Shown: positions 7,631 to 64,000, counted from the stretch's first letter. The stretch is 64,000 nt of DNA from Polaromonas sp. (GCF_036676035.1 NZ_JAKFDR010000057.1:1572-65571), one strand, 5' to 3'. Numbers and translations are program-made. Notes: generated by a model from the sequence alone, not told the origin.

Positions 7631-8155
7631 ATGAAACGCTTTCATGTACACGTTCACGTAGAAAACCTTGAGCAGAACATCGCCTTTTACTCGGCGATGT
7701 TCAACCAGAGCCCGGCGCGTCTTGAAGCCGACTACGCCAAATGGATGCTGACCGACCCGCCGGTCAACTTTGCCATCTCCACCCGCGGCGATGCACCGGG
7801 CGTGGACCACCTGGGCATCCAGGTCGAATCTGCCGAGGAACTGGCCGCGCTCAAGGACAACGCCACGAAGGCCGACATGGCCCTGCTGGACGACGGCGAG
7901 ACCACCTGCTGCTACTCGCGCAGCGACAAATACTGGGTGACCGACCCGCAAGGTATTGCCTGGGAGCAGTTCCACACGCTGGACAGCATCCCGGTGTTCA
8001 GTGAAAAGAAACTTGAATCAAATCAGGCTGTAGCCCAGGCATGCTGTGCATCAGCAGCTCCTGAAAACATAGCAAAAGTGCAATTCGTCAAATCCCGCCC
8101 GGCGCCTTCAACCGCCTCGGGCCTTGCAGGCAGCGCCGGCAAAGCCTGCTGCTGA
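7631..8155 (+). CDS. arsI: ArsI/CadI family VOC protein (C-As lyase-like)
   Basis: MKRFHVH, DHLGIQV, TTCCY vicinal Cys, DPQGIAWE; extra ACCA and terminal CC. Confidence 0.82.
   Translation: MKRFHVHVHVENLEQNIAFYSAMFNQSPARLEADYAKWMLTDPPVNFAISTRGDAPGVDHLGIQVESAEELAALKDNATKADMALLDDGETTCCYSRSDKYWVTDPQGIAWEQFHTLDSIPVFSEKKLESNQAVAQACCASAAPENIAKVQFVKSRPAPSTASGLAGSAGKACC
8021..8074 (+). repeat. 54-bp GCTAY-N7-RTAGC repeat, in frame within arsI
   Basis: aatcaggctgtagcccag...agcagctcctgaaaacatagca aligns without gaps to intergenic copies such as 48792-48845 and 54642-54695. Confidence 0.7.
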
Positions 8156-8431
8156 TCACTCAACCTAGAAACCGCAGTTGACCGCTCATTGACCGCTGGC
8201 TGAACCTCATGAACACGTACCTACCAACTCACGTACACGTTCACCTTTTGGGTGACAGCGCTACGCACCCGATTGAGCCGCCCTGGCGCGCGCTGGCGGC
8301 GTTGCTCCTCCTTGCAGGCATCAGCCTGCTGCCTCGTCACGCCTTGCCAGCCCACCCCATGCCGACCCACTCGGGCGCGTCCAACTGCGGTTTCTAGGTT
8401 CAAGAAACCAAACAACCACAAGGAGCAAGCT

Positions 8432-8935
8432 GTGAGCAAGCAGCCGATCAATGTTCTTTTCCTCTGCACCCACAATTCAGCGCGCAGCATTCTGGCTGAA
8501 GCCCTGCTCAACCATATCGGGCAGGGGCGTTTCAAAGCGTACTCGGCCGGTAGCAGCCCACGCGCGAACCAGCAGCCCAACCCGCTGGGACTGAAAGTCC
8601 TGCAAGCCGCAGGCATTTCGATAGAAGGCCTGCGCAGCAAAAGCTGGGACGATTTTGCAAAACCGGACGCCCCCCAGATGGACCTGATCGTTACGGTCTG
8701 CGACAACGCCGCCGGCGAGACCTGTCCTTACTGGCCCGGCCACCCCGCCACCGTGCACTGGGGCTACGCCGATCCGTCGGCCATTGACGGCACCGAGGAA
8801 CAAAAACTCGAAGCCTTTCGCCAGACGCTTCATGCGATTCATCGTCGCCTGGAGCTGCTGGTCAACCTGCCCCCCGAAAGCCTCGACAAGCTGATGCTGC
8901 AAACCAGCGCCCGCAATCTGGCCAAAACCGCCTGA
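8432..8935 (+). CDS. arsC: LMW-PTP-type (thioredoxin-coupled) arsenate reductase
   Basis: FLCTHNSARS, GLRSKSW, TVCDNAAGETCPYWPG, HWGYADP; GTG start after AAGGAG. Confidence 0.9.
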   Translation: MSKQPINVLFLCTHNSARSILAEALLNHIGQGRFKAYSAGSSPRANQQPNPLGLKVLQAAGISIEGLRSKSWDDFAKPDAPQMDLIVTVCDNAAGETCPYWPGHPATVHWGYADPSAIDGTEEQKLEAFRQTLHAIHRRLELLVNLPPESLDKLMLQTSARNLAKTA

Positions 8936-8971
8936 TCCCTGGCCCTCGCCTTCTCTTTTTCCGGCCTTCAC

Positions 8972-9850
8972 ATGAAAAAAATCCTCGCCAATGGGCTTCT
9001 GCCCGGCGCGCTGCTGGTCAGCGTGGCCACCTTTCTTTACGCGCGGCAAACCGGCGGCAACATGGAACTGGCCATTCTGCTCAGCAGCCTGGGCGCCTTG
9101 CTGCTGGCCATGCTGCTTGAGCGCCGCATGCCCCATCAACCCCAGTGGAACACCCCACGTGGCGACAGCCTTACCGACTGGCTGAGCTTCGGCCTGCTGG
9201 CCGGTGTCGTGCAGCCGCTGCTCAAATGGCTATCGCCACTCATCGTCATCGGCGTCTATGGCCTGATCGAGCCGGCTGCAGTGCTGTTTCCGGTCGATGC
9301 GCCCTTCGCCCTGCAGGTGCTACTGGTCACCCTGCTGGCGGAATTTGGCAAATACTGGGCCCATCGCTGGCACCACACCCAGCCGGCCCTGTGGTGGCTG
9401 CATGCCCTGCACCACGGCAGTGAGCGCCTTTACTCGGTCAACAACTTTCGCGTCCATCCGCTGGAATACGTCCTCAAACATGGCTTGAGCATGCTGCCGC
9501 TGATGCTGATGGGCGTGCCCGCCGATGTGTTGCTCGGCTACATCGCCCTGACCCAGCCCGTGCTGATGCTGCAGCATGTCAATCTGCCGCTGCGCCATGG
9601 CTGGCTCAACTACCTGCTCAGCACCAACGAGCTGCACCGCTGGCACCATTCAAGCCGGCAGGAAGAAGGCAACAACAACTACGGCAGCGCCCTGATGGTC
9701 TGGGATCTGGTGTTTGGCACCTTCCATTACCCGCGCCATGCTTCAGGCCCACAAGCCATCGGCCTGTATGCCGGCAGCCAATACCCGGCGCGCCAGCCCT
9801 ACTGGGCCCAGGTGCTGTCCATGTTCAGCCCGGCGTGTTGCAAAGCATGA
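8972..9850 (+). CDS. sterol desaturase / fatty acid hydroxylase superfamily membrane protein
   Basis: His boxes HRWHH, HALHH, QH, HRWHH; several hydrophobic helices; C-terminal ACCKA. Confidence 0.88.
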   Translation: MKKILANGLLPGALLVSVATFLYARQTGGNMELAILLSSLGALLLAMLLERRMPHQPQWNTPRGDSLTDWLSFGLLAGVVQPLLKWLSPLIVIGVYGLIEPAAVLFPVDAPFALQVLLVTLLAEFGKYWAHRWHHTQPALWWLHALHHGSERLYSVNNFRVHPLEYVLKHGLSMLPLMLMGVPADVLLGYIALTQPVLMLQHVNLPLRHGWLNYLLSTNELHRWHHSSRQEEGNNNYGSALMVWDLVFGTFHYPRHASGPQAIGLYAGSQYPARQPYWAQVLSMFSPACCKA

Positions 9851-10536
9851 GCACCAACACTTTGCGCACACCCCCCTGGCGGGTTCTGCTCGCCGAGTTT
9901 CTGGGCACCGCCGCCCTGCTCTGCGCCGTGATCGGCTCCGGCATCATGGCCGAGCGCCTGGCGGGCGGCAACGCCGCCATTGCCTTGCTGGCCAACACGC
10001 TGGCCACGGTGTTCGCGCTGTATGTGCTGATTGAAACGCTGGGCCCCGTCAGTGGCGCGCATTTCAACCCGCTGGTCACTCTAGCCTTATGGTCAAAAGG
10101 CACTCTAGCCCATGAAAAACGGGCGCAATCAGCTATATTTTTTATAGCATCCCAGTTGCTGGGTGCTGTGGCAGGTGCCTGGCTGGCGCATGCCATGTTT
10201 GATCTGCAGCTGCTGCAGTTCAGCACCAAGGTCCGCACGGGCCCGGGCCAGTGGATCGCCGAAGCCGTGGCCACGGCCGGGCTGGTGCTGGTGATCCTGC
10301 GCGCTCCGGCCGGCAAGGCGTCTGCCTTGGTGGCCTGCTACATCGGCGCGGCCTACTGGTTCACCGCCAGCACCTCATTTGCCAACCCGGCCGCCGTACT
10401 CGGGCGCATGCTGTCCGACAGTTTTGCCGGCATTGCACCAGCGAATGCCCCGGCGTTTGTAGTGGCCCAGACTGTGGGTGCCGGCGTTGGTGTGTTACTG
10501 GACCGCTGGCTGGGTCCCCGCCATGAGCGATGCTGA
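9847..10536 (+). CDS. MIP family channel (AqpS-like aquaglyceroporin)
   Basis: AEFLGT, SGAHFNPLVT, SFANPA; ATGA overlap with the desaturase stop. Confidence 0.88.
   Translation: MSTNTLRTPPWRVLLAEFLGTAALLCAVIGSGIMAERLAGGNAAIALLANTLATVFALYVLIETLGPVSGAHFNPLVTLALWSKGTLAHEKRAQSAIFFIASQLLGAVAGAWLAHAMFDLQLLQFSTKVRTGPGQWIAEAVATAGLVLVILRAPAGKASALVACYIGAAYWFTASTSFANPAAVLGRMLSDSFAGIAPANAPAFVVAQTVGAGVGVLLDRWLGPRHERC
10096..10149 (+). repeat. 54-bp repeat, in frame within the MIP gene
   Basis: aaaggcactctagcccatgaaaaacgggcgcaatcagctatattttttatagca; GCTAT-N7-ATAGC core and GCCC...GGGC arm; AT-rich in a GC-rich gene. Confidence 0.8.
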
Positions 10537-10661
10537 GAACTGGGAAGTCGAGCTCCAGGGAATGGTAAAACCCAAGTCCGCTGTGTGCGAGCTTTTTGCG
10601 TCTGGGGCCGATACTCACAGGGACAAAAGGCCACGGGATAGATGCATGCCAAGGCCAATTC

Positions 10662-21929: not shown

Positions 21930-22883
21930 GTGAATCCTTCGCCCACCCCCCCAAATGTCCTGTCCGTGGTGGACGCGCACCATCATCTGTGGGACTTGTC
22001 GCGCGGCCGCTACCCGTGGCTGCAGCAAGCGTACAACCCGCAGGAATTCTTTCTGGGCGACTATGCTGCGTTGTGCCGGGACTTCTTGCCCGCAGACTAC
22101 CGCGCGGCAAGCGCGGGTGTTCAAGTGTTGGCAACGGTACACGTCGAGGCCGAGCGTGACCGTAGCGAGCAGGTGCTTGAGACCGCCTGGCTGCATGAGA
22201 TGAGCGCCTCGCATGGTTTTCCCAATGCCGTGGTGGCGCATGCCTGGTTCGACAGGCCCGATACGGAGGAGTGTCTGCTCAGCCATCTGCGCTATCCGCT
22301 GGTACGGGGTATCCGCAGCAAGCCGGTGACATCGGCAACGCCAGGGCAAACCGTGGCGGGGCAGCCAGGCAGCATGCAGGACGAGGCCTGGCTGCGCGGC
22401 TTTTCGCTGCTGCAAAAATACGGGTTGAGCTGGGACATGCGCGTACCCGCCTGGCACTTGCCCGAAGCGGCCCAGGTCGCGGCCATGTTTCCGCTGGTGC
22501 CCATGGTGCTCAACCACCACGGCTTTGCCTGGGACCGCAGTGAAGAAGGCCTCCGGCGCTGGCGTGGCTGGATGGGAACACTCGCACGCCAGCCGAATGT
22601 GCATGTGAAGCTCTCCGAATTCGGCCTGCGCGACCAACCCTGGAACTGGGAGGAGAACGCCCGCATCGTGCGCGACACGCTGGCCATCTTCGGCTGGCAG
22701 CGCTGCATGTTCGCCAGCAACTTTCCGGTGGCGCGCCTGCGTATCGGCTTTCAACCCCTGGTAGAGGCTATCTGGCGTATGCTGGATGGTCTCACCCACG
22801 ATCAGCAACAGGCCGTGATGAGCGGCAATGCACTGCGCTTTTACCGCATTGATCTTCCACCCACTTCAGACGTGAATATATGA
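21930..22883 (+). CDS. amidohydrolase-2 family, sugar lactonase-like
   Basis: VDAHHHLW, MVLNHHG, VKLSE, MFASNFP; ATGA overlap with the ALDH. Confidence 0.8.
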   Translation: MNPSPTPPNVLSVVDAHHHLWDLSRGRYPWLQQAYNPQEFFLGDYAALCRDFLPADYRAASAGVQVLATVHVEAERDRSEQVLETAWLHEMSASHGFPNAVVAHAWFDRPDTEECLLSHLRYPLVRGIRSKPVTSATPGQTVAGQPGSMQDEAWLRGFSLLQKYGLSWDMRVPAWHLPEAAQVAAMFPLVPMVLNHHGFAWDRSEEGLRRWRGWMGTLARQPNVHVKLSEFGLRDQPWNWEENARIVRDTLAIFGWQRCMFASNFPVARLRIGFQPLVEAIWRMLDGLTHDQQQAVMSGNALRFYRIDLPPTSDVNI

Positions 22884-24328
22884 CCACCTTCAACAACCTT
22901 ATCAACGGCCAATGGCTGGCGGCCAGCAGCACCAGCGCCAACCTCAACCCGTCGGACCTGTCCGATGTGATTGGCCAGTATGCCCAGGCCGATGCGGCAA
23001 CACTCGATGCCGCTGTACAGGCTGCGCAGGCGGCTTTTCCCGCCTGGTCCTCCGCCGGCATTCAGGCCCGTTCGGATGCACTCGACAAGATAGGCACCGA
23101 AATCCTGGCCCGCAAGGAAGAGCTGGGCACGCTGCTGTCCCGCGAAGAAGGCAAGACCAAGCCGGAAGGCATTGGCGAAGCCACCCGCGCCGGCCATATC
23201 TTCAAGTTCTTTGCCGGCGAGTGCCTGCGCCTGTCGGGCGAAACCCTGCCCTCCGTGCGCCCGAATATCGGCGTGGAAATCACCCGCGAGCCGGTAGGCG
23301 TGGTGGGCCTGATCACGCCCTGGAATTTCCCGATCGCGATTCCGGCCTGGAAGATTGCGCCGGCGCTGGCCTTTGGCAACTGCGTGGTGTTAAAGCCGGC
23401 CGATCTGGTGCCGGGCAGCGCCTGGGCCCTGGCCGAGATCATCTCGCGCTCTGGTATTCCGGCCGGCGTTTTCAACCTGGTCATGGGGCCGGGCCGGGTC
23501 ATCGGTGATGCGCTGGTCAATCACCCGGGCATCAATGCCATCAGCTTCACCGGCTCGGTCGGGGTGGGTGGGCGCATTGCGCTGGCCTGCGCCAAAAACC
23601 TGAAGAAGGTGCAGCTCGAAATGGGCGGCAAAAACCCGCAAGTCATTCTGGACGATGCGGACCTGGCCCGGGCGGTGGAACTGAGCACACAAAGCGCGTT
23701 TTACTCCACCGGCCAGCGCTGCACCGCGTCCAGCCGGTTGATCGTGACCGAAGGCATCTACCCGGCCTTTGTCAAAGCCCTGCAGGAGCGCATGGCCCGC
23801 ATCAAGGTCGGTGATGCGCTGACCGCCGGCACCGACATCGGCCCGGTGTCCTCACAAGCGCAACTCGAGCAGGACCTGAGCTACCTTGAAATCGGCAAGG
23901 CCGAGGGTGCGACGCTGGCCATGGGCGGCGAACGCGTCAAGTGCCACACCGGCAGCAGCGCCGAAGGCTACTTCATGGCCCCGGCGCTGTTCAGCGAGAG
24001 CACCGCCACCATGCGTATCAACCGCGAAGAAATCTTTGGCCCGGTGGCCAGCATCATCCGCGTCAAGGACTACGAAGCCGCGCTGGCCACCGCCAACGAC
24101 ACGCCGTTTGGCCTGTCCGCCGGCATTGCCACCACCAGCCTGAAATACGCCACACATTTCAAACGGCACAGCCAGGCCGGCATGGTCATGGTGAACCTGC
24201 CCACCGCCGGGGTCGACTACCACGTGCCATTTGGTGGGCGCAAGGGCTCCAGCTACGGACCGCGCGAACAGGGCAAGTATGCGCAGGAGTTTTTCACGAC
24301 GGTCAAAACCGCCTACACGCTGGCTTGA
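22880..24328 (+). CDS. aldehyde dehydrogenase, alpha-ketoglutaric semialdehyde dehydrogenase-like
   Basis: TPWNFP, FTGS, LEMGGKNP, GQRCTA, EEIFGP, PFGGRKGS. Confidence 0.88.
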   Translation: MTTFNNLINGQWLAASSTSANLNPSDLSDVIGQYAQADAATLDAAVQAAQAAFPAWSSAGIQARSDALDKIGTEILARKEELGTLLSREEGKTKPEGIGEATRAGHIFKFFAGECLRLSGETLPSVRPNIGVEITREPVGVVGLITPWNFPIAIPAWKIAPALAFGNCVVLKPADLVPGSAWALAEIISRSGIPAGVFNLVMGPGRVIGDALVNHPGINAISFTGSVGVGGRIALACAKNLKKVQLEMGGKNPQVILDDADLARAVELSTQSAFYSTGQRCTASSRLIVTEGIYPAFVKALQERMARIKVGDALTAGTDIGPVSSQAQLEQDLSYLEIGKAEGATLAMGGERVKCHTGSSAEGYFMAPALFSESTATMRINREEIFGPVASIIRVKDYEAALATANDTPFGLSAGIATTSLKYATHFKRHSQAGMVMVNLPTAGVDYHVPFGGRKGSSYGPREQGKYAQEFFTTVKTAYTLA

Positions 24329-24362
24329 AGGTCATGCAGTTGCGAAACCGGGTAGAGACATT

Positions 24363-24416
24363 TGCTATTTAATTGATAGCTTGTTGCAACCGTATCCAGA
24401 CGGCTGCGGCCATAAA
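24363..24416 (-). repeat. 54-bp GCTAT-N7-ATAGC repeat (intergenic)
   Basis: tgctatttaattgatagcttgttgcaacc...ggctgcggccataaa. Confidence 0.75.
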
Positions 24417-25805: not shown

Positions 25806-25937
25806 AGCTCGGATATTCGAGGGCGCGCGGTACCCTTCCAATACGCTTTAATCCGGATTCAGGCAATGTTTGATGCGCATCCCGCACTCAGAAAAGGCGG
25901 ATGCCTTCGGGTTGCGCTAACCGCGCGCCCTTTATTT

Positions 25938-25991
25938 TGCTATTAATTTAATAGCTCCTTGTGCCCGTTTTTAAAGGGCCAGAAGCCTATT
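25938..25991 (-). repeat. 54-bp repeat (intergenic)
   Basis: tgctattaatttaatagctccttgtgcccgtttttaaagggccagaagcctatt. Confidence 0.8.
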
Positions 25992-26008
25992 TACCTCAAG
26001 AAAACGGA

Positions 26009-27340
26009 TCAGGCACGCACGGTATCGGCCACGCGCTCGGCGCAAGCTTGGGCCTGCTGGGCGTCGCGCGCCTCAACCATCACCCGCAGCAGCGGCTCGG
26101 TGCCGCTGGCGCGGATCAGCACGCGGCCGCTGTCGCCCAACTCGGCCTCTACGGTTTTGGTCACAGCGGCCAGCTGCGCGCTGCTTTTCCAGTCTTGCCC
26201 GGGCTTGAGCCGTACATTGATCAGAGTCTGGGGAAACAGCACCACATCGCCAAGCAACTGCGCAATCGTCTTGCCGCTGCGCACGCAAGCCTGCAGCACC
26301 TGCAGCGCGCTGATCAGGCCGTCGCCGGTGGTGTGTTTGTCCAGCGCCAGCAGGTGGCCCGAACCTTCGCCGCCCAGCAGCCAGCCGCGCTTGTCGAGTT
26401 CTTCGAGCACATAGCGGTCACCCACCTTGGCGCGCACAAACTCGACGCCCTTGCGTTGTAGGGCCACCTCCACGGCCATGTTGGTCATCAACGTGCCGAC
26501 CGTGCCGGGCACTTTTTCGCCGCGCGCCAGCCGCTCGCTGACCATCAGGAACAGCACCTCATCGCCGTTGAACAGGCGGCCCGTGGCGTCCACCAGCTGC
26601 AGCCGGTCGGCGTCACCGTCCAGCGCGATGCCGTAGTCGGCATGGTTGGCCTTGACGGCACGGATCAAGGCTTCGGGGTGCGTGGCGCCCACCTCGTGGT
26701 TGATGTTCATGCCGTCGGGCGCGCAGCCGATGGCGATGACTTCGGCGCCCAGTTCGTGAAAGACCTTGGGCGCAATGTGATAGGCCGCACCATGCGCGCC
26801 ATCGACCACGATCTTGAGCCCCTTGAGGGTCAGGTCATTGGCAAAGGTGCTCTTGCAGAACTCGATGTAGCGGCCCGCCGCGTCATCCAGCCGGCGTGTC
26901 TTGCCCAGGGTAGCCGAGTCGGCCCATACCGGGGGTTCCTCGAGCGCAGCTTCGACGTCCCGCTCCCAGGCGTCGGACAGCTTGGTGCCCTGGGCGCTGA
27001 AAAACTTGATGCCGTTGTCCGGGTAGGCATTGTGGCTGGCGCTGATGACCACGCCCAGGCTGGCGCGCTGCGCCCGCGTGAGGTAGGCCACACCCGGTGT
27101 CGGCAGGGGCCCGAGCAGCACCACGTCGACGCCGGCCGAGTTGAAACCCGACTCCAGTGCGCTTTCCAGCATGTAGCCCGAAATGCGTGTGTCTTTGCCA
27201 ATCAGGACCGTGGGGCGCGCCTCGGTTTTCTTGAGCACACGGCCCACGGCGTGCGCCAGGCGCAGCACAAAGTCAGGCGTGATGGGCGGCTGCCCCACGG
27301 TGCCCCGAATGCCATCTGTTCCGAAATACTGTCTGGTCAT
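26009..27340 (-). CDS. glmM: phosphoglucosamine mutase
   Basis: [36 protein letters not shown]. Confidence 0.97.
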
Positions 27341-35358: not shown

Positions 35359-36420
35359 ATGCCCCTGCTCCCCTACGCCCTGGCCCGCCCCTTTTTATTT
35401 GGTCTGGACCCTGAAACCGCCCACGAACTGACCATGGCCTCGCTGGCACGCATCCAGCGCACGCCGCTTGAACTGGCCTATTGCTCGGGCCGGGTGAGCG
35501 ACCCGATCGAGCTGGCCGGACTGAAGTTTCCCAACCGGGTCGGCCTGGCCGCCGGGCTGGACAAAAACGCGCGCTGCATCGATGGCCTGGCCGCCATGGG
35601 TTTTGGCTTTGTCGAGGTGGGCACCGTCACGCCCAAGGCCCAGCCGGGCAACCCCAAGCCGCGCATGTTCCGCCTGCCCGAAGCCAACGCGCTGATCAAC
35701 CGCCTGGGCTTCAACAACGACGGGCTGGACGCCTTCATTGCCAATGTGCAGCAATCCAGATTTCGCCAGCAGAACCCGAAAAACCCCTTGCTGCTGGGCC
35801 TGAACATCGGCAAAAACGCCGCCACCCCGATTGAGAACGCGGTCGACGACTACCTGGTCTGCCTCGACGGCGTCTACCCGCACGCCGACTACGTCACCGT
35901 CAATATCTCCAGCCCCAACACCAAAAACCTGCGGGCGCTGCAAAGCGACGAAGCCCTGGACGGTTTGCTCGGCGCCCTGGCCGAGCGCCGCGAAGCGCTG
36001 GCCCGCCTGCACGGCAAACATGTGCCCCTCTTCGTCAAGATCGCCCCCGACCTGGATGAAGCGCAGGTTGACGTGATTGCCGCGACCCTCAAACGCCATG
36101 GCATGGACGGCGTGGTCGCCACCAACACCACGCTGAACCGCGAGGCCGTCAAACACCTGCGCCACGCCGAAGAAGCCGGCGGCCTGAGCGGCGCCCCCGT
36201 GCTTGAAGCCAGCAACCGCGTGATTGCCCAGTTGCGTGCGGCCCTGGGCACGGGCTTTCCCATCATCGGCGTGGGCGGCGTGATGAGCGGTGCCGACGCG
36301 GTCTCCAAAATCCGCGCCGGCGCTGACGTGGTGCAGATCTACACCGGCCTGATCTACAAAGGCCCGGAGCTTGTCGCCGAGGCTGCCAATTCCATTAAAC
36401 AGAGCAAAAACAGCCGTTAG
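35359..36420 (+). CDS. pyrD: dihydroorotate dehydrogenase (quinone)
   Basis: [41 protein letters not shown]. Confidence 0.97.
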
Positions 36421-36461
36421 CCCTTAAGAAGTATGCACAAGCAGCTATTGTTTTCGTAGCA
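36408..36461 (+). repeat. 54-bp repeat supplying the stop codons of both convergent genes
   Basis: aaacagccgtTAGcccttaag...gcagCTAttgttttcgtagca; contains the pyrD TAG (36418-20) and the opposite-strand TAG (36445-47). Confidence 0.75.
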
Positions 36462-37554
36462 AATCGCCGACATGCTCGCCAATTGCCAGCGCACTGGTCA
36501 GCCCCGGCGACTCGATGCCGAACAGGTTGACCAGCCCCGGCACGCCGTGCTCGGCCGGACCCTGGATCAAAAAGTCCTTGGCCGGCTCATGAGGGGGCCC
36601 AATCTTGGGGCGCAGGCCCGCGTAGCCGGGAATCAGGGCGCCGTCCTGCAGCACCGGCCAGTACTTGCGCACCTCGGCGTAAAACGCGTCGCCGCGCGCC
36701 GGGTCCACCACCAGATCGTCGGGGGAGTCCACCCACTGCACGTCGGGACCGAATTTGGCCTGGCCGCCCAGATCAATTGTCAGGTGTACGCCAAGCCCGG
36801 CGGCCTCGGGCACCGGGTAAATCAGGCGCTGAAATGGCGAGCGGCCTGAGAGCGTGAAGTAATTGCCTTTGGCGTAATAACTTGCCGGCACAAAGCGCGC
36901 GGACAGCCCCGCAAAACGCTGGGCCAGCGCCGGCGCGTACAGACCCGCCGCGTTGACCACGCTGCGCGCCTGCAGCTCGGTGCCGTCTTTTGCTATCAAA
37001 TGAATAGCTGCTGGCGAACATTCAGCATGGGCCAGGGGCGAATTGAGCACCACCATCCCGCCGGCGTTCTCGAGGTCGCCCTGCAGCGCCAGCATCAGGG
37101 CATGGCTGTCCACAATGCCGGTGCTGGGTGACTGCACGGCGGCCACGCAGTCCAGCTGCGGCTCCAGCGCCCTCGCCTGCTCGCGCGTGAGCAGCAGCAG
37201 ATCGTGCACGCCATTGGCGGCAGCCTTGGCGATGATGGTCTGCAACTGCGCCACCTGCGCCTGGCTGGTCGCCACAATCAGTTTGCCGCAGCGGCGGTGC
37301 GCAATGCCGCGCTCGCCGCAGTAGGCGTACAGCAGCGCCTTGCCCTGCACGCACAGCCTGGCCTTGAGCGAGCCTTGCGGGTAGTAAATGCCGGCGTGGA
37401 TGACCTCGCTGTTGCGCGAGCTGGTGCCCGTGCCAATCGCGTCTGCCGCCTCCAGCACCATCACCTCGCGGCCCTGCAAAGCCAGCGCACGCGCCACGGC
37501 CAGCCCCACCACACCCGCACCCACCACCACGCAATCGACCTGGTCCACGCTCAT
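36445..37554 (-). CDS. FAD-dependent oxidoreductase, L-2-hydroxyglutarate oxidase (LhgO)-like
   Basis: [49 protein letters not shown]. Confidence 0.85.
36991..37044 (-). repeat. 54-bp repeat, in frame within the LhgO-like gene
   Basis: tgctatcaaatgaatagctgctggcgaac...gggccaggggcgaatt encodes [18 protein letters not shown]. Confidence 0.8.
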
Positions 37555-37573
37555 ATGTCTGCTCTTGCTTCCA

Positions 37574-38611: not shown

Positions 38612-38658
38612 GGTCAGAGTCGGCGTGAAGGCGCCCCCGAAACATGGGGCGATGAAGG

Positions 38659-39513: not shown

Positions 39514-39719
39514 GACTGGACTTTAGCAGTTGGCCGGGGGCCACCCGTCGATTGAATGTGAACGGTGGTCAACGAGTTTTTGGCAAATTTACATTTGTTC
39601 TCTACACACTCCGCGTCTGCGCTGCTACCATGGTCTTTCAGAGTGCTCTAAATTAAACGTTGTTTTTGAAGAAAAAAAGAGCCATTCAATGGCGTTCTTC
39701 AAACACTCAAGGAGCTGCC

Positions 39720-40346: not shown

Positions 40347-40387
40347 ACCGTCAAGCCACTGAACGGTCTTTCAGGAAACCCAAAGCC

Positions 40388-40425
40388 AAAAAGCCCGTCA
40401 TGCCTGCTGGTGTGACGGGCTTTTT
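40388..40425 (+). terminator. intrinsic (possibly bidirectional) terminator
   Basis: AAAAAGCCCGTCA...TGACGGGCTTTTT. Confidence 0.8.
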
Positions 40426-40455
40426 GGTGATTTTTGTGGGGTCGACACCCAAATC

Positions 40456-40509
40456 CGCTACCAAATCAATAGCTGTTGGTGCCTATTCAGCAAGGGCTAC
40501 AGGTCAAAA
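40456..40509 (-). repeat. 54-bp repeat (intergenic)
   Basis: cgctaccaaatcaatagctgttggtgcc...gggctacaggtcaaaa. Confidence 0.75.
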
Positions 40510-40520
40510 TGGCTGAAACC

Positions 40521-42057: not shown

Positions 42058-42768
42058 TCACTTCATCTGCACCGAACCGCTGACATTGACCAGCACCGTG
42101 CTTTTGCCCGCTTCCACGGAAATCGGAGCGTCCGACATCTCGGCCTTGGCCTGCATGGCCATCATGCGGGGACGGGGCGTATGGCCCTGGTCATTGGCGT
42201 TGACGGCCACTTCGCGCAGCGTGTAGCTGCCAAAGCCGAAGTTTTTGGCGATCTCCGACGCCTTGGCCTTGAAGCGCTCGATGGCCTGGGCTTGCGCCTC
42301 GCCTTCGACCTTGGCGCGCTGCTCGCGGCTCAGGGCAAAACCCACATGGCCCAGCGTCAGGGTCTGAATCTTGCCGGCCGTGCTGGTGATGCGTGCAAAA
42401 TCCTTGCCTTCGAGCACCAGCTCGGTCGAGCCCTGCCAGCCGTTGATCTTGCCGTCTTTGCCATAGCGCGGGTAAAGGCTGAAGTTGCCGGTCCGCACGT
42501 CCAGCTGGCCGGGCAGCGCGGCTTTTTTGGCCTCTGCCAGCGCCGTGTCCAGCGCCTGCTTGAGCTGGGTCTGCACTGTGTTGGCATCGCTGCCGTCACG
42601 CGTGGTGTTCATGGTGATTGACAGCAGGTCCTGCTGCACTTCCACCGAGCCGCTGGCCGACAGCTGGGCCACGTTTTGCAGCGGTTCGCGCTGCATGGTC
42701 TGGGCAAAAACCCCGGTTGCCCCCGCAAACACTGCGCAGGCAGCTATTATTTTTGTAGTATTTTTCAA
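42058..42768 (-). CDS. SIMPL domain (DUF541) periplasmic protein
   Basis: TTG start with GAAAGG SD; signal peptide; VRTGNFSLYPRY, VNVSGSVQM. Confidence 0.85.
   Translation of the reverse strand: MKNTTKIIAACAVFAGATGVFAQTMQREPLQNVAQLSASGSVEVQQDLLSITMNTTRDGSDANTVQTQLKQALDTALAEAKKAALPGQLDVRTGNFSLYPRYGKDGKINGWQGSTELVLEGKDFARITSTAGKIQTLTLGHVGFALSREQRAKVEGEAQAQAIERFKAKASEIAKNFGFGSYTLREVAVNANDQGHTPRPRMMAMQAKAEMSDAPISVEAGKSTVLVNVSGSVQMK
42707..42760 (+). repeat. 54-bp repeat forming the SIMPL signal peptide
   Basis: aaaaccccggttgcccccgcaaacactgcgcaggcagctattatttttgtagta; read antisense as TTKIIAACAVFAGATGV. Confidence 0.75.
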
Positions 42769-48752: not shown

Positions 48753-48791
48753 GCACGCACGGCAAGGCGTTTTATTCAAAATATGTAGTCA

Positions 48792-48845
48792 AATCGGCCT
48801 CCAGTCCTTATTAAATGGGCGCAAGATGCTCCTAAAACAATAGCG
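48792..48845 (+). repeat. 54-bp repeat supplying the ispF stop
   Basis: aatcggcctccagtcc...gcgcaagatgctcctaaaacaatagcg; last ispF codons and TAG lie within it. Confidence 0.75.
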
Positions 48846-49323
48846 CCACGGCGCGCGCCTCGATGCTCAGCCCCTGCCCCACCGGGCCCAGCTTTTCGGC
48901 GGTCTTGGCCTTGACGTTCACGCGGTCCGCGTCCAGACCCAGCGTGTTTGCAATGCGCTGGCGCATGGCTGCGATATGCGGTGCCAGCTTGGGCGCCTGC
49001 GCAATCACCGTGCTGTCGATGTTGCCAATCTGCAAGCCCCGCTGCGCCAGCAGACGCCCGGTCTCGGCCAGCAGGGCCACGGAATCTGCGCCCTTGAAGC
49101 GCGCATCGGTGTCCGGAAAGTGCGAGCCAATGTCGCCCAGGCCCGCAGCGCCAAGCAGCGCATCGATGATGGCATGCAGCAGCACATCGGCGTCGGAGTG
49201 GCCCAGCAAGCCGACGGTGTGCGCTACCTCCACGCCACCGATGATGAGCTTGCGCCCCGGCACCAGTGCGTGGGTGTCCCAGCCTTCACCGATGCGAAAT
49301 GGAGGCCGATTAGCTGAAGTCAT
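48832..49323 (-). CDS. ispF: 2-C-methyl-D-erythritol 2,4-cyclodiphosphate synthase
   Basis: [31 protein letters not shown]. Confidence 0.97.
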
Positions 49324-50298: not shown

Positions 50299-53200
50299 AT
50301 GGACTTACCCAAACTCGTTCCCGGCAAGCGCTACACCCTGCCGCAGCCCGCGGGCTCTGCCGACGCCCTGCTGCTCGCCCACCTGGGCCTGCGGGAAAAA
50401 TCCGCCGGCAGGCTCACCGCCATCATCACGTCGGACGCCGCCACCGCCCAGCGTCTGATCGACGAGATTGCGTTTTTTGCGCCCGATCTGCGCTGCGCGC
50501 TGTTTCCCGACTGGGAAACCCTGCCCTACGACACCTTCTCGCCGCACCAGGACCTGATCAGCGAGCGGCTGGCCACCTTGTGGCGGATCTCGCAGCGCGA
50601 CAAGGAAACCGGCGCCGACCTCGTCATCGTGCCCGCGACCACCGCGCTGTACCGGCTGGCGCCCCCCAGTTTTCTGGCGGGCTACACCTTTCATTTCAAG
50701 GTCAAGCAAAAGCTCGACGAAGCGCGGCTCAAGGCCCAGCTCACGCTGGCCGGGTACAGCCACGTGACGCAGGTGGTGAGCCCCGGCGAATACGCCGTGC
50801 GCGGCGGCCTGATTGACCTGTTCCCCATGGGCTCGGCCGTGCCTTACCGCGTCGACCTGTTTGACGACGAGATCGACAGCATCCGCACCTTCGACCCCGA
50901 CAGCCAGCGCAGCCTGTACCCGGTGCCCGAAGTGCGCCTGCTGCCGGGCCGTGAATTCCCCATGGACGACGACGCGCGCGCCAAATTCCGCAACCGCTGG
51001 CGCGAACTGCTCGATGGCGATCCGACCAAGAGCCGCATCTACAAGGACATGGGCAACGGTGTGGCCACCGCCGGCATCGAGTACTACCTGCCGCTGTTTT
51101 TTGAAGACACCGCCACCGTGTTCGACTACCTGGGCAGCGATGCAACTGTCGTGTTGCACGGCGACCTGGAACCGGCTTTCCAGCGCTTCTGGCAAGACAC
51201 CAAAGACCGTTACCGGCTGGTTCGCAATGCGCCCGACCGGCCTGCCCTGCCGCCAGAATCGCTGTTTCTGGGCACCGAACAGTTTTACGCCCGCGCCAAC
51301 GACTACGCCCAGCTGGCGTTGAAAGCGGGGAGCCCTCTCCCTCTCCCAGGGGGAGAGGGGATTAAGGGGAATTTACTCCCTCTCCCCCTGGGAGAGGGCA
51401 GGGGTGAGGGCTCCCCGTACGTCGAATTCAACTCACTACCGCCAATGGCCGCCGTTCGTGGCGCCGAAGACCCTTTGGCCCGGCTCAAGGCGCACATCCA
51501 CAACACGCCACACCGCGTGCTGGTGCTGGCCGAAAGCGAGGGCCGGCGCGAAAGCCTGCTCGACTTTCTGCACGCCAGCAATGTCAGCCCGCCCGCGTTT
51601 GACTCGCTCGAAGACTTCCAGGTCAGCGACGAAAAACTGGGCATTGCCACAGCGGCCCTGGATGTGGGCTTTAGCTGGCTCGAAGCCGGCATCGACTTCG
51701 TCACCGAAACCGAGCTGTTTGCCGCCGGTGCCGTCACGCGCCGGCGCAACAAAAAACAGGAACAGGTCAGCGATGTCGAAGCGCTGATCAAGGATCTCTC
51801 GGAGCTCAATGTCGGTGACCCCGTGGTCCATAGCGCCCACGGCATTGGCCGCTACAGGGGCCTGATCAATATGGACCTGGGCCAGGAAAAAAACCCCGAC
51901 GGCACGCCCGCGCTTCAGGAATTTTTGCACCTTGAATACGCCGACAAGGCCACGCTGTATGTGCCCGTCAGCCAGTTGCATCTGATCAGCCGCTACACCG
52001 GCGTCAGCGCCGAAGAAGCGCCACTGCACCGGCTGGGCAGCGGCCAGTGGGAAAAGGCCAAGCGCAAGGCCGCCGAGCAGGTGCGCGATTCGGCCGCCGA
52101 GCTGCTCAACATCTATGCCCGCCGCGCGGCACGCGAGGGCCATGCTTTCCGCTATTCACCCCACGACTACGAAGCTTTCGCCAACGATTTCGGCTTTGAG
52201 GAAACCGCCGACCAGCGCGCCGCCATTCATGCCGTGATTCAGGACATGATCAGCCCGCGCCCCATGGACCGGCTGGTCTGCGGCGACGTGGGCTTTGGCA
52301 AAACCGAAGTCGCCCTGCGCGCCGCCTTCATCGCGATTACCGGTGGCAAACAGGTCGCCTTGCTGGCGCCCACCACGCTGCTGGCCGAGCAGCACTACCA
52401 GACGCTGGTCGACCGCTTTGCCAAATGGCCGGTGAAAGTGGCCGAGATGAGCCGCTTCCGCTCGACCAGGGAAATCACCACCGCCATCAAGGGCCTGGCC
52501 GATGGCAGCGTGGACATTGTGGTGGGCACGCACAAGCTGCTGAGCCAGGACGTGAAGTTCCAGCGCCTGGGCCTGCTCATCATCGATGAAGAGCATCGCT
52601 TTGGCGTGCGTCACAAGGAAACCATGAAGGCCATGCGCGCCGAGGTGGACGTGCTCACGCTGACGGCCACGCCGATTCCGCGCACGCTGGGCATGGCGCT
52701 GGAAGGCCTGCGCGACCTCAGCGTGATTGCCACCGCGCCGCAGCGGCGCCTGGCCATCAAGACCTTTGTGCGCAGTGAAAACAACGGCGTCATCCGTGAG
52801 GCCGTGCTGCGCGAACTCAAGCGTGGCGGCCAGGTGTACTTCCTGCACAACGAGGTGGACACCATCGAGAACCGCCGCCAGAAGCTCGAGGAAATCCTGC
52901 CCGAGGCGCGCATTACCGTGGCCCATGGTCAGATGCCCGAGCGCGAGCTGGAGCGGGTGATGAAAGACTTCGTGGCGCAGCGCTACAACCTGTTGCTGTG
53001 CTCCACCATCATTGAAACCGGCATTGACGTGCCGACGGCCAACACCATTGTGATGAGCCGTGCCGACAAGTTTGGCCTGGCCCAGCTGCACCAGCTGCGC
53101 GGCCGGGTCGGACGCTCGCACCACCAGGCCTATGCCTACTTGATGGTGCCCGACATCGAGGGCCTGACCAAACAGGCCAGCCAGCGGCTCGAAGCCATCC

Positions 53201-53859
53201 AGCAGATGGAAGAGCTTGGTTCGGGCTTTTACCTCGCCATGCATGACCTGGAGATTCGCGGCACGGGCGAGGTGTTGGGCGAAAACCAGTCCGGCAACAT
53301 GCTCGAAGTGGGGTTTCAGCTCTACAACGAAATGCTCTCGGAGGCCGTGCGCAGCCTCAAAGCCGGCAAGGAGCCTGACCTGCTGGCGCCGCTGTCGGTC
53401 ACCACCGAGATCAACCTGCATGCCCCGGCCCTGCTGCCGTCCGACTACTGCGGCGATGTGCACCTGCGCCTGAGTTTTTACAAAAAACTGGCCACAGCCA
53501 AGAACACCGATCAGATCGATGCGCTGCTGGAAGAAATCGTCGACCGCTTCGGCAAGCTGCCCGCGCAGGCACAAACGCTGGTCGACGTGCACCGCCTGCG
53601 CGTGATTGCCAAGCCTTACGGCGTGCTCAAGGTCGATGCGGCGCCGGGCATGATCAACATCACCTTCAAGAAAGACCCGCCCATCGATTCGATGGCCATC
53701 ATGCAGCTGATCCAGAAAAACCGGCACATCAAGCTGGCCGGCAATGACAAGCTGCGCATTGAGCGCGAGCTGGAAAACCCCAAGGACCGCGCGCAGTTGG
53801 TGCGCGATGTGCTGCGCAGTCTGGGGCAACCCAAACCCGTGACATATGCCGAGGCATAG
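50299..53859 (+). CDS. mfd: transcription-repair coupling factor
   Basis: ETLPYD, GDVGFGKTEV, IDEEHRFG, TATPIPRTL, QLRGRVGR, DLEIRG; carries a 30-aa insertion. Confidence 0.98.
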   Translation: MDLPKLVPGKRYTLPQPAGSADALLLAHLGLREKSAGRLTAIITSDAATAQRLIDEIAFFAPDLRCALFPDWETLPYDTFSPHQDLISERLATLWRISQRDKETGADLVIVPATTALYRLAPPSFLAGYTFHFKVKQKLDEARLKAQLTLAGYSHVTQVVSPGEYAVRGGLIDLFPMGSAVPYRVDLFDDEIDSIRTFDPDSQRSLYPVPEVRLLPGREFPMDDDARAKFRNRWRELLDGDPTKSRIYKDMGNGVATAGIEYYLPLFFEDTATVFDYLGSDATVVLHGDLEPAFQRFWQDTKDRYRLVRNAPDRPALPPESLFLGTEQFYARANDYAQLALKAGSPLPLPGGEGIKGNLLPLPLGEGRGEGSPYVEFNSLPPMAAVRGAEDPLARLKAHIHNTPHRVLVLAESEGRRESLLDFLHASNVSPPAFDSLEDFQVSDEKLGIATAALDVGFSWLEAGIDFVTETELFAAGAVTRRRNKKQEQVSDVEALIKDLSELNVGDPVVHSAHGIGRYRGLINMDLGQEKNPDGTPALQEFLHLEYADKATLYVPVSQLHLISRYTGVSAEEAPLHRLGSGQWEKAKRKAAEQVRDSAAELLNIYARRAAREGHAFRYSPHDYEAFANDFGFEETADQRAAIHAVIQDMISPRPMDRLVCGDVGFGKTEVALRAAFIAITGGKQVALLAPTTLLAEQHYQTLVDRFAKWPVKVAEMSRFRSTREITTAIKGLADGSVDIVVGTHKLLSQDVKFQRLGLLIIDEEHRFGVRHKETMKAMRAEVDVLTLTATPIPRTLGMALEGLRDLSVIATAPQRRLAIKTFVRSENNGVIREAVLRELKRGGQVYFLHNEVDTIENRRQKLEEILPEARITVAHGQMPERELERVMKDFVAQRYNLLLCSTIIETGIDVPTANTIVMSRADKFGLAQLHQLRGRVGRSHHQAYAYLMVPDIEGLTKQASQRLEAIQQMEELGSGFYLAMHDLEIRGTGEVLGENQSGNMLEVGFQLYNEMLSEAVRSLKAGKEPDLLAPLSVTTEINLHAPALLPSDYCGDVHLRLSFYKKLATAKNTDQIDALLEEIVDRFGKLPAQAQTLVDVHRLRVIAKPYGVLKVDAAPGMINITFKKDPPIDSMAIMQLIQKNRHIKLAGNDKLRIERELENPKDRAQLVRDVLRSLGQPKPVTYAEA
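51327..51416. repeat. 90-bp palindromic element inserted in frame in mfd
   Basis: 11-bp terminal IR GGGGAGCCCTC / GAGGGCTCCCC enclosing two CTCTCCC-N3-GGGAGAG hairpins. Confidence 0.85.
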
Positions 53860-54206: not shown

Positions 54207-54646
54207 CCGGCTCAATCCTGACGCCACTCCTGCTCGACACCAACATCATCTCCGACATGATGCGCGACCTGCAAGGCCCAGCGGCAAGGCGTGCCATGGC
54301 AGCCGACCCATCAAGCGCGAGCCGACCGTTGTACACCAGTGCGGTGGTTCAGTGCGAGCTGGAGTACGGCCTTGCACGGCGCAAGAACGCTCGCCTGGAG
54401 GTGGCTTACCAGGGCGTCATGGCCACGGTTGAGGTGCTGCCAATCACCAGCGACGTCGCCGAGCACTACGCCCGTCTGCGCACCCAATTGGAAGCCCTTG
54501 GCCAGCCTATCGGCCCCAACGACGCACTGATTGCCGCCCATGCGTTGGCCCTGGATGCCACCCTGGTCAGCGCCGATGCCGAATTCCGTCGTGTACCAGG
54601 GCTGCGGGTTGAAAACTGGCTGGAACCAGAAAATACAGCCAAATAG
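54203..54646 (+). CDS. vapC: PIN-domain toxin VapC
   Basis: LLDTNIIS, ELEYG, IGPNDALIAAHA, LVSAD..EF.RVPGL.VENW. Confidence 0.92.
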   Translation: MTGSILTPLLLDTNIISDMMRDLQGPAARRAMAADPSSASRPLYTSAVVQCELEYGLARRKNARLEVAYQGVMATVEVLPITSDVAEHYARLRTQLEALGQPIGPNDALIAAHALALDATLVSADAEFRRVPGLRVENWLEPENTAK

Positions 54647-54695
54647 GCTTGCAGCCCATTCGTTTATTGCGCTACCAGCTATCAAAATAATAGTA
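54642..54695 (+). repeat. 54-bp repeat supplying the vapC stop
   Basis: aaTAGgcttgcagcccat...gcgctaccagctatcaaaataatagta. Confidence 0.8.
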
Positions 54696-57360: not shown

Positions 57361-57690
57361 ATGGCTCTTACCCACGCTTTGCCGCTTGATGTCATCAATG
57401 TTCGCCCGCTGGGCGCGCAGCTCCCCGAAACAAAAACCCACAGCCTGATCAAAACCGGCAAACTGCAGCTGATGCGCATGGCCCTGACTGCCGGAGACAG
57501 CGTGCCCGTGCACCACGTGACGGGTGAAATCACGATTCAATGCCTGGAAGGTGAAGTGCTGGTCACCACATCCGCACGCGCTTGCACCCTGAGCGCCGGA
57601 GAGCTGCTGCTGCTGCCGGCAGCCGAGCCGCATGGCTTGCAAGCCAAAAGCAACGCATCGCTGTTGGTGACCGTGCTTTTGCACCAGTAA
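57361..57690 (+). CDS. cupin domain protein
   Basis: VPVHHVTGEITIQCLEGE, EPHGLQA; GGAGG SD. Confidence 0.85.
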   Translation: MALTHALPLDVINVRPLGAQLPETKTHSLIKTGKLQLMRMALTAGDSVPVHHVTGEITIQCLEGEVLVTTSARACTLSAGELLLLPAAEPHGLQAKSNASLLVTVLLHQ

Positions 57691-57714
57691 GCCCAAGCGT
57701 TTGCGAATATTTTT

Positions 57715-57768
57715 TGCTACCCTTTTAATAGCTTGAAACGCTCGAATTAAAAGGGCTTGAGCCTTGTT
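57715..57768 (-). repeat. 54-bp repeat (intergenic)
   Basis: tgctacccttttaatagcttgaaacgc...gggcttgagccttgtt. Confidence 0.7.
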
Positions 57769-57818
57769 TTTCTTCAAAAACGCGCACACTGGCTGAACAG
57801 GCCCTCAAGCCTGGGTCT

Positions 57819-58604
57819 TCAATCCAGCGCGGCGGGCCGGCTGTCAGGCTGGGTAAAAGAGTCTTCCCACTGCGTGGCAAACCGGTCGGGTTTGCTGGTG
57901 GACTTGGGCGCCGCTGTGCCGTCGGGGTTGAAGCCCGCAGCGCGGCTTGCCTTCGGGCGTTCGGTGTCTTCGCTGTCCTTGATTTCTTTCAGGGCGGCTT
58001 CTTTGGTTGCCTGTACTTTTTGGCGCGTGAAGGCCGTGAGATCCGCATGGAAGCTGCTGTCGCCGCCCCGGGTCTGCAATATTTCTTCTTCCTCTGCTTT
58101 GGTCATGACCTCCACTTCACCCAGGAAGGCAGCCCGCATGGCATGGGCCGCGGGCAGATGGCTGCTGTAAACCACGGTGTAGGCAATGTCGCAGTCCGAC
58201 AAAAGCCTTTCTTTCAGTTCGCGGCTGGCCTTGCTGAAGCCGCGTTTGCCCGGCACATCCACACAGCCCACCACCTTGCCGTGAGGAGTGCACACGGTAA
58301 AGGTGGCGTACACACCGTTGAGCAACTCCTGCCACTGCTCACTCTTGTCTTTGGAGCGCGGAACGGTGAAACGCAAGACCGGGGTCTTGACCATGATGAA
58401 GTGGTCGTGAAACGCCTCGCGCAGCCACTCCCAGACCTCCTGCTCCTCGGTGCTCACCAGGCCGCGCGGGTTCAGCGGCCATTTGGCCGGCAGGCGGCGC
58501 CTGGCCTCTTCCTTGCGCCGCACCCACCCCGCATGAAGCAAGCCGCCCAGCAGCAGCCCCACCACAACGCCCAGCCCGATCATCAGCCATGTTGATAAAT
58601 TCAA
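57819..58604 (-). CDS. membrane-anchored protein, DUF2726-like
   Basis: N-terminal TM; KWPLNPRGLV, VKTPVLRF, TFTVCT..GKVVGCVDV. Confidence 0.65.
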   Translation of the reverse strand: MNLSTWLMIGLGVVVGLLLGGLLHAGWVRRKEEARRRLPAKWPLNPRGLVSTEEQEVWEWLREAFHDHFIMVKTPVLRFTVPRSKDKSEQWQELLNGVYATFTVCTPHGKVVGCVDVPGKRGFSKASRELKERLLSDCDIAYTVVYSSHLPAAHAMRAAFLGEVEVMTKAEEEEILQTRGGDSSFHADLTAFTRQKVQATKEAALKEIKDSEDTERPKASRAAGFNPDGTAAPKSTSKPDRFATQWEDSFTQPDSRPAALD

Positions 58605-61319: not shown

Positions 61320-61320
61320 A

Positions 61321-63333: not shown

Positions 63334-63345
63334 GGGAATCCTATC

Positions 63346-63399
63346 CGCTATGTATTTGATAGCTGCTTGCGTACTATTCGCAAGGGCTGCAGGTTCATT
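63346..63399 (-). repeat. 54-bp repeat (intergenic)
   Basis: cgctatgtatttgatagctgcttgcgtac...gggctgcaggttcatt. Confidence 0.8.
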
Positions 63400-63411
63400 T
63401 CTCCATGGATC

Positions 63412-63861
63412 TCAGCCGCGCAGCATGTGAAAGTTGAGCAGGCGCGTGGCGATCACCGTCTCCGTCAGAAAGCACAGCAGCGCCAGCAGAAAGCAGACCA
63501 CGCCCGAGAGAAAACTGCCGATGGCAAAGCGGTTGATCTGGAACGCCGTGGTCTCACCCAGAAACAGCAGGATGATCGTCAGCCCGATCAGGAAGGCGCA
63601 GAAGGTCAGCAGCGCAATACAGCCATTGGCCAGCCGGCCCCGAAGCCGCAGCTCGGCCAGCTCTGTGTAGGCACGCTGCAGGAACTCCTCGTCGGTCGAC
63701 GTCCGGGCCCGGTCTTCCACCAGGCGCGCGCGGTCAATGATGCGAGCCAGACGGCCGGCGATGGCGCCTATCATTCCCGATACCGCCGTCAACAGGAACA
63801 CCGGCGCAACGGCCAGTTGAATGCCGTGGGTAACGACGCTGGCATCAACAGGAAGACTCAT
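63412..63861 (-). CDS. DUF2721 family membrane protein
   Basis: IQLAVAPVFLLTA, RLARIIDRAR, three TM helices. Confidence 0.8.
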   Translation of the reverse strand: MSLPVDASVVTHGIQLAVAPVFLLTAVSGMIGAIAGRLARIIDRARLVEDRARTSTDEEFLQRAYTELAELRLRGRLANGCIALLTFCAFLIGLTIILLFLGETTAFQINRFAIGSFLSGVVCFLLALLCFLTETVIATRLLNFHMLRG

Positions 63862-63956
63862 GGCATGACTCCGACAATAAGATGAAAGCGATTATTGCGC
63901 GATGACAAGCTCGGCCCCGTCTACGATGAGTTTTGTGGTGCCATGCGAATCAAATT

Positions 63957-64000
63957 TGCTATGTATTTGATAGCTATTTACGCCCTATTTGCAAAGGCTT
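63957..64000 (-). repeat. 54-bp repeat, cut by the window edge
   Basis: tgctatgtatttgatagctatttacgccc... Confidence 0.7.

Follow-up and report, generated by a model that had tools for sequence, protein, structure and literature searches.

A stretch of 64,000 nucleotides from a Polaromonas sp. assembly (GCF_036676035.1, NZ_JAKFDR010000057.1:1572-65571; the whole stretch is hereafter called the window) carries a short palindromic repeat, recognisable by the pattern GCTAY-N7-RTAGC, whose copies lie between genes, across gene ends and inside genes, where they are translated. What kind of element this is, how its copies reached their sites and what has kept them there are the questions raised by this locus. 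An earlier note on the same DNA had listed 14 copies and proposed a repetitive extragenic palindromic (REP)-like element acting as a source of protein sequence. The reading favoured here, to which we give about even confidence, is that of an ancient, largely vertically inherited, dispersed element of fixed length (about 66 bp) that would be kept by selection acting on its DNA.

The pattern GCTAYN7RTAGC occurs nine times in the window, against 0.01 occurrences expected by chance. An nhmmer profile was built from the gap-free alignment of the listed copies and iterated on the source genome (4.30 Mb, 136 contigs), where it retrieved 502 matches at E<=1e-4 and 591 at E<=1e-2, or about one per 7-8 kb. 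Fourteen copies were found in the window (genome-wide E of 1e-12 to 1e-6), namely 13 of the 14 listed previously, all at E<=1e-6, and a new one at 6596-6651. The proposed family is thus real, and profile and pattern scans showed it to be abundant outside the window, in the source genome as well as in relatives among the Comamonadaceae. The remaining listed copy, described as degenerate at 45584, gave no profile match even at E<=50 with filters off; it was rejected as a member of the family, being merely a signal peptide of similar composition.

The repeat unit, whose consensus is ATTTGCTATTAATTTAATAGCTGCTTGCGCACATTTTACAAGGGCTAGAGGCCTATTTGGC, consists of three short palindromic modules: P1 (GCTAY-N7-RTAGC, with an AT-rich N7), P2 (a GC-rich hairpin, the sequence of which differs between genera) and P3 (GGCT-N2-AGSC, followed by ATTT). 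Five consensus positions (C4, T5, A17, G18 and C19) were 100% fixed genome-wide, GCGC (positions 25-28) and GGGC (40-43) were 86-97% fixed and the ATTT tail was 82-99% fixed. Spacers close to random lay between blocks fixed at 90-100%, the N7 loop showing a preference for A/T. The head of the repeat read ATAG in 82% of copies and GTAG in 17%. A GCCC..GGGC arm, previously said to be usually present, was found in about a third of the genome-wide copies (positions 29-30 were CC in 33%), and the earlier wording was too strong. Information content reached about 53 bits per copy, and the conservation profile was the same for intergenic and in-gene copies. Outside the ~66-bp unit the flanks showed no conservation and the boundaries were sharp, so that a larger composite element was rejected.

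The placement of the 502 copies was analysed relative to genes called by a dicodon-based caller of our own (4025 genes, 88% coding density), which is crude. Intergenic copies numbered 252, while 165 lay wholly in genes and 85 overlapped a gene end. Those in genes were evenly spread along them and were divided equally between orientations (83 sense, 82 antisense), and the 3-base periodicity in GC that marks coding sequence was seen in their flanks on both sides. Read in either orientation, the consensus has two frames interrupted by stop codons, and the remaining open frame was used by 73 of the 82 antisense and 68 of the 83 sense copies (141 of 165). In the window, three copies are indeed in frame inside genes (for an ArsI-like glyoxalase-fold protein, a MIP aquaporin and a DAO-family FAD oxidoreductase) and all three share one frame, as had been claimed; this sharing is no biological bias, because only one frame per orientation is free of stops.

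Codon usage inside these genes suggests what is being conserved. The GC content at third codon positions (GC3) was 0.37-0.40 in the in-gene copies versus 0.79-0.80 in the flanking 40 codons (0.80 for the whole genome), and dicodon log-odds per codon were -0.06 in copies versus +0.39 in flanks. At the site in the DAO-family gene, whose product is LhgO-like, the motif ranged across species from near perfect to absent, with the peptide hardly altered. Strong copies there used CTA, ATT, TTG and GCA, decayed lineages were back to CTG, ATC, CTG and GCG, and very close relatives differed by single substitutions. Judging from these sequence comparisons, what is kept is the DNA sequence and not the encoded peptide.

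Copies at such sites are old. Of 81 genomes, 26 have the internal copy of the LhgO-like gene at an identical position, Acidovorax, Rhodoferax and Ramlibacter among them, and at least nine gains or losses were needed to account for it on the protein tree. Within Polaromonas, the core pattern gave 200-650 matches in about 75% of sampled species and fewer than 35 in the rest. Among 200 genera in the GTDB family to which Polaromonas belongs, about 40 proved rich by a stricter 26-nt pattern (up to 384 matches), the remainder having almost none, and no match to the core pattern was obtained in other families of the order. Motif-poor Polaromonas were found to retain peptide relics of copies, now decayed, in MetH and, in genome G001, in TruB, which suggests that whatever maintains the motif has been lost in those lineages. 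Among the genome-wide copies no near-identical pairs were found, so that nothing shows present-day mobility. Pairwise identity at the 40 variable positions was close to the column-shuffled expectation, with a small excess in the upper tail.

Comparison with 114-160 kb from each of six other genera revealed the same 66-bp unit with the same spacing and with genus-specific middle modules, as if each lineage used its own dialect. This P2 module was GCGCTTG-N5-CAAGCGC in G091 and G188 and TACCGCTGG..CATTGGCC in G249, and in G176 it read CCCGCGATATTCTATTGGG with hardly any variation, the P1 loop alongside varying freely. Such a pairing of fixed module and free loop cannot stem from recent amplification and points to a sequence-specific constraint. 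One published observation very likely concerns a further dialect. A spaced word pair, ATAGCT(N)22CAAAAG, was reported from Polaromonas naphthalenivorans CJ2 in 125 copies, 81% of them intergenic and many between convergent genes, and was left unexplained (PMC5217627). It almost certainly belongs to the same family, although that report is statistical only and does not deal with anatomy, coding copies, distribution or evolutionary history. A literature search for the motif in Polaromonas or Comamonadaceae returned nothing beyond it.

How the copies entered genes was examined at 13 in-gene sites as the net length difference between the source genome and motif-less outgroups, a chimera of twelve 110-residue segments having been used to search four motif-poor Polaromonas genomes as well as four other genera. 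Little or no change was seen in LhgO (-2 residues), TruB (0), AroE (0), NadE (+4), LeuS (+5) and PurK (+5), intermediate values in ThiL (+8), PutA (+9), PurL (+9) and Pgi (+11), and the largest in GpsA (+18), DapE (+23) and MetH (+20 to +25). Comparison of paralogues within the source genome (43 cases) gave mostly 0 to +13 residues, with one case near +19. The LhgO-like protein is about as long as Bordetella 3dme in the PDB alignment, as 16 orthologues from the genus and order and as those of Hylemonella, Variovorax, Curvibacter and Pseudorhodoferax, and motif-less relatives carry a homologous peptide at the site of the copy, for instance NSPLASASMTAQGIELHARDGT against NSPLAQAKCAQAAIDLIAKDGT. 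In TruB, a beta-strand region was overwritten residue by residue. Sequence comparison thus suggests a mixed history, in which some copies inserted about 20 codons and others overwrote resident ones.

This bears on the precedent invoked in the earlier note, the Rickettsia palindromic elements (RPEs) inserted in frame in proteins. The two families are alike in being old palindromic repeats, translated in frame in housekeeping genes and kept at orthologous sites. However, RPEs are clean insertions of 30-50 residues, whereas the present motif has net effects of -2 to +25 residues and in several cases overwrites homologous ones; it also differs in that DNA rather than peptide is conserved and most copies are intergenic. 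Clean insertion holds for MetH and DapE, which have real inserts of about 20-25 residues, but not for the LhgO-like, TruB and NadE sites. There, motif-less relatives align residue by residue with little length change, and distant orthologues hence carry the same peptide without the nucleotide motif, a finding that the note itself had named as one that would speak against its proposal. The source assembly holds two NadE copies, 87% identical in DNA (C47:16362-17606 and C68:2849-4543), one with a strong copy of the motif and the other with a decayed one. With three ComEC matches in the same assembly, this metagenome-assembled genome may mix two related strains, or the genes may be true paralogues.

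Copies that are not wholly inside a gene are unevenly distributed among spacers: convergent ones held 122 copies versus 57 expected, divergent ones 24 versus 79, and tandem ones 178 versus 188, with no preference for either orientation in the last (87 versus 91). Genome-wide, 81 genes have their stop codon within a copy, and about 12-15 N-termini resembling signal peptides or lipoprotein leaders are encoded by one, in either orientation. Pairs of copies less than 1 kb apart were rarer than expected (31 versus 59), and no pairs enclosing a gene were found in the genome. Spacing was near random (coefficient of variation 0.89 versus 0.98), so regular spacing is a weak effect at most; the same applies to replication polarity, copy orientation being split 57:43 with respect to GC skew. 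A seeming all-plus orientation in two complete genomes is explained most simply by the order in which matches were listed. Copy density was lower in the bins of least native codon usage (0.73 versus about 1.2 per 10 kb).

The history that we favour for this fixed-length element would run as follows. Copies would have entered their sites long ago by a copy-in process capable of insertion as well as overwriting, some entries adding about 20 codons and others replacing resident codons with little or no change in length. They would then have been inherited vertically under purifying selection on the DNA sequence and not on the peptide. The most likely reason for such selection is a putative lineage-specific factor that recognises the element on the chromosome and co-evolves with it, and this recognition may give the element an architectural or topological role comparable to that of REP sequences and bacterial interspersed mosaic elements (BIMEs). 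The REP/BIME elements of E. coli are host-bound sites, for gyrase and IHF. In lineages freed from the constraint, copies would decay. The translation of copies, and the stop codons and signal-peptide cores that they donate, would be by-products of where copies are tolerated, the one open frame per orientation encoding an Ala/Ile-rich peptide.

Several observations weigh against this history. The proposed function is deduced from conservation alone, and REP-like elements are not usually under DNA-level selection within coding regions. The inserts of about 20 residues in MetH, DapE and GpsA, the extra spacer DNA described below and the small excess of similar pairs point to some copying mechanism. 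Block conservation could partly reflect the needs of rare trans-mobilisation instead of a function for the host. Finally, the count of 165 in-gene copies depends on a crude gene caller, 16 sites having been checked by homology.

Support for the other explanations decreases from a selfish REP- or RPE-like element, through a drive resembling that of uptake sequences, to a role at the RNA level. The first, a possible but rather unlikely one, supposes a mobile element similar to REP sequences or to MITEs (miniature transposable elements with inverted repeats), whose insertions survive in frame when their length is a multiple of three and whose conserved blocks are the requirements of a transposase acting in trans. 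A defined unit of about 66 bp in hundreds of copies would be expected of it, as would a patchy taxonomic distribution, the net gain of about 20-25 residues at MetH and DapE and of 18 at GpsA, some pairs more alike than chance and an RTAG head upstream of a GC-rich hairpin with compensatory changes in sister genera. Spacer lengths at the ispF site, the sole intergenic site where synteny allowed a clean comparison, are also in its favour, with 140-336 bp in motif-rich relatives against 0-130 bp in motif-poor ones (248 bp in the source genome). On the other hand, near-identical copies are missing, copies are orthologous across genera, ten of the 13 in-gene sites changed in net length by only -2 to +11 residues, the copies at TruB and LhgO being homologous residue by residue to the native peptide, and blocks still 100% fixed amid random spacers are not what uniform decay would leave. 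Of MITE traits, neither terminal inverted repeats nor target duplications nor a signal in the flanks was found, and the only transposase gene met was one unrelated Y1 type, other transposase families not having been surveyed.

That gene is of the REP-associated tyrosine transposase (RAYT) type (NF047646, 82.6 bits; contig C11:37700-38560, L001:1412-2272), and a linked RAYT had been suggested as something to look for. It is bracketed by a different repeat, a 23-nt inverted sequence TAATTGGGGTCAGATTCCAATTA with about 11 genomic copies, which is a small separate REP-like family; the nearest copies of the motif lie 5-7 kb away. Of 61 Polaromonas species, 60 carry RAYT genes, and none of the motif-poor ones is without. 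At the family level they were detected in 128 of 201 genomes, the motif-rich G129, G189 and G249 having no match. Being neither necessary nor sufficient for the motif at that level, and not tracking it, a RAYT link was rejected. Similarity to the REP/BIME and REPIN-RAYT systems of Enterobacteria, Pseudomonas and Stenotrophomonas is seen in the hundreds of short palindromic copies in both orientations, in their location after genes and between convergent genes, and, less plainly, in the RTAG head upstream of a GC-rich hairpin. The motif departs from them in having a third of its copies intragenic and translated, in lacking the inverted doublets and the clusters of identical copies typical of REPINs (none was seen among the genome-wide copies), in a P1 module without covariation and in a RAYT gene that is neither flanked by the motif nor co-occurring with it. 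The idea of a REP-like source of protein sequence thus stands as far as the repeat is dispersed, is translated and supplies stop codons and signal-peptide cores, and falls as regards a RAYT partner and signs of mobility.

A second alternative, which we consider unlikely, is that a family-wide signature of about 66 bp has been written over the chromosomes, housekeeping codons included, by a directional process, not by ordinary transposition, and is read by a putative factor co-evolving with the dialects. The process could be a bias in uptake or recombination, or templated patch replacement. If directional writing were true, the motif would exceed every known signal of this kind in length by a wide margin, and no earlier example would come from beyond Neisseriaceae and Pasteurellaceae. 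At the TruB site (C10:44636-45682), the motif is present in the source genome and in G176, which belongs to another genus, and the congener G039 keeps an outgroup-like native sequence. This implies independent writing or allele transfer.

In its specific form, with matches accumulating by substitution through sequence-biased uptake or recombination and with dialects following the receptor, directional writing seems improbable. The DNA uptake sequences (DUS) of Neisseriaceae and the uptake signal sequences (USS) of Pasteurellaceae resemble the motif in being superimposed on coding sequence in tolerated frames, in occurring equally in both orientations, in having lineage dialects and in being conserved at orthologous sites. 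A drive of this kind would agree with overwriting that leaves length unchanged, with the use of rare codons, with the fairly even spacing, with depletion of the motif in atypical DNA, with whole lineages of decayed copies beside genus dialects and with the distribution at TruB. However, the motif, with its 66 bp and about 53 bits, exceeds any known uptake signal several times in length (at least 5 times for DUS or USS) and is about 8-fold sparser, with about one copy per 8 kb, known uptake sequences having a density of roughly 1 per 1 kb. Such signals do not feature hairpins with compensatory changes, and some copies are true inserts of 20 residues. ComEC is found throughout the genus, in motif-rich and motif-poor genomes alike, which makes the comparison with competence uninformative and gives the drive no help, and no report of natural transformation or uptake sequences was found for these genera in the searched literature.

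Folding and covariation were analysed for the separate modules. P1 showed no base-pair covariation, Y7 and R15 varying independently, and was rejected as a selected hairpin. P2 was slightly more stable in the source genome than column shuffles (-4.90 versus -4.46±0.06 kcal/mol). In G091 and G188 it showed compensatory UA/CG changes, 81% of cells being paired, and a covariation score of 0.143 versus 0.094±0.016 that was matched by none of 500 shuffles, albeit in a small sample (n=20). Single copies were weakly structured, two of nine folding better than shuffles (z-scores -2.6 to +0.6). A terminator scan over 20 kb flagged one of six copies and a total number of sites equal to that of shuffled sequence; with the absence of an orientation bias, this led to the rejection of a canonical intrinsic terminator. 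No Rfam family matched the window at gathering thresholds, and none explaining the copies matched 36300-40700 at E<=10. A Thr_leader overlap at 40384-40488 scored 28.6 bits against a gathering score of 55 and was centred on a separate terminator-like hairpin (40385-40428).

A function as an RNA-level element, whether intrinsic terminator, mRNA 3'-end stabiliser or small RNA, is therefore highly improbable: it would suit the enrichment right after genes and between convergent genes, the T-rich tail at the element end and the one window copy flagged as terminator-like, but orientation is unbiased with respect to transcription (87 versus 91 copies), a third of copies lie inside genes and are equally conserved, only two of nine fold better than shuffled sequence, terminator-like sites are no commoner than in shuffles, a separate strong terminator stands beside the copy at 40454, and Rfam gives no match.

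The copies of the window illustrate the range of sites occupied. The new one (6596..6651, plus strand, E=1.3e-11 genome-wide) is intergenic. The next two are translated. One (8019..8076, minus strand, E=2.4e-8) lies in the ArsI-like glyoxalase-fold gene (7631-8155, plus strand), where it forms residues 130-149 of the C-terminal tail, Pfam and PDB matches covering residues 1-114 only. The other (10092..10149, minus strand, E=2.2e-10) lies in the MIP aquaporin gene (9835-10536, plus strand; PF00230); it encodes residues 86-105, directly after the first NPx motif, and can be aligned to the native residues of AqpM with only 4 additional ones. The region 7631-10536 resembles an arsenic-resistance gene cluster, comprising the ArsI-like protein, a membrane enzyme and the aquaporin, and a translated copy is present in two of its three genes. 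Two further plus-strand copies are intergenic, at 24361..24415 (E=6e-7), 33 bp past the stop of gene 22880-24328, and at 25936..25992 (E=1.3e-12), 17 bp from the stop of gene 26009-27340 (minus strand).

Four genes of the window take their stop codon from a copy, in accordance with what had been claimed. Two of them share the copy at 36404..36463 (minus strand, E=8e-11), which extends across the 3' ends of two convergent genes and whose two TAG triplets are the stops of pyrD (35359-36420, plus strand) and of the DAO-family gene (36445-37554, minus strand), both Pfam-supported. At the 3' end of the latter the copy is conserved in five species (among them G006, G008, G009 and G016), even with unrelated downstream DNA. 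The internal copy of the same gene (36989..37044, plus strand, E=2.2e-11) encodes residues 171-189. The third stop is that of ispF (48832-49323, minus strand; PF02542), whose last codons and stop are covered by the copy at 48788..48845 (minus strand, E=2.1e-10), and the fourth that of a PIN-domain gene (54344-54646, plus strand; PF01850), covered by the copy at 54638..54693 (minus strand, E=1.3e-10), the sole window copy flagged as terminator-like. Of the two signal peptides previously ascribed to copies, that of the SIMPL/DUF541 protein (42058-42732, minus strand) stands: the copy at 42705..42758 (minus strand, E=1.2e-6) encodes the signal peptide MKNTTKIIAACAVFAGATGVFA-QT, and PF04402 begins at residue 24.

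The remaining copies are on the plus strand. One lies between convergent genes at 40454..40513 (E=1.8e-11) and is adjoined by the very strong hairpin mentioned above (20 pairs, then a T run), so that the copy is not needed as a terminator there. Another convergent pair encloses the copy at 57713..57769 (E=6e-7). In the close relatives G006, G008 and G009, the genes flanking it (57361-58583) are separated by 3-4 kb, and the copy would therefore sit at a deletion or rearrangement junction in the source genome. The last two are a copy between co-directional genes at 63344..63400 (E=8e-11) and one cut by the window end (63955..64000; 63955-64011 in the contig, E=5.7e-10 on the contig).

Another palindromic element, this one GC-rich, was noticed at 51327-51416, in frame in a 1186-residue open reading frame (50299-53859), with two CTCTCCC-N3-GGGAGAG hairpins (2 matches versus 0 expected by chance). 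A repeat termed BRE (Beta-proteobacterial repeat element) has been described from Bordetella and Comamonadaceae; it is most numerous in Polaromonas JS666, is about 90 bp long with 69% GC, often forms tandem arrays and has some copies in coding sequences (PMC3110155). BRE resembles the element at 51327-51416 more than the AT-rich 66-bp motif, and identity of the latter with BRE was rejected, BRE being a distinct GC-rich repeat of about 90 bp.

About 1% of the genome in many Comamonadaceae is made up of an element seemingly without published description beyond one statistical word pair. This repeat shapes proteins, to which it adds loops, signal-peptide cores and stop codons. Conserved DNA in coding regions would imply that synonymous sites are not neutral in more than 100 genes, which would affect gene annotation, dN/dS (nonsynonymous to synonymous substitution rate) analyses and codon-based inference in these genomes. 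The contrast between lineages that have the motif and those that lack it, along with the genus dialects, should make the putative reader findable by phylogenetic profiling, and the question of what REP-like repeats are for would thereby become directly testable.

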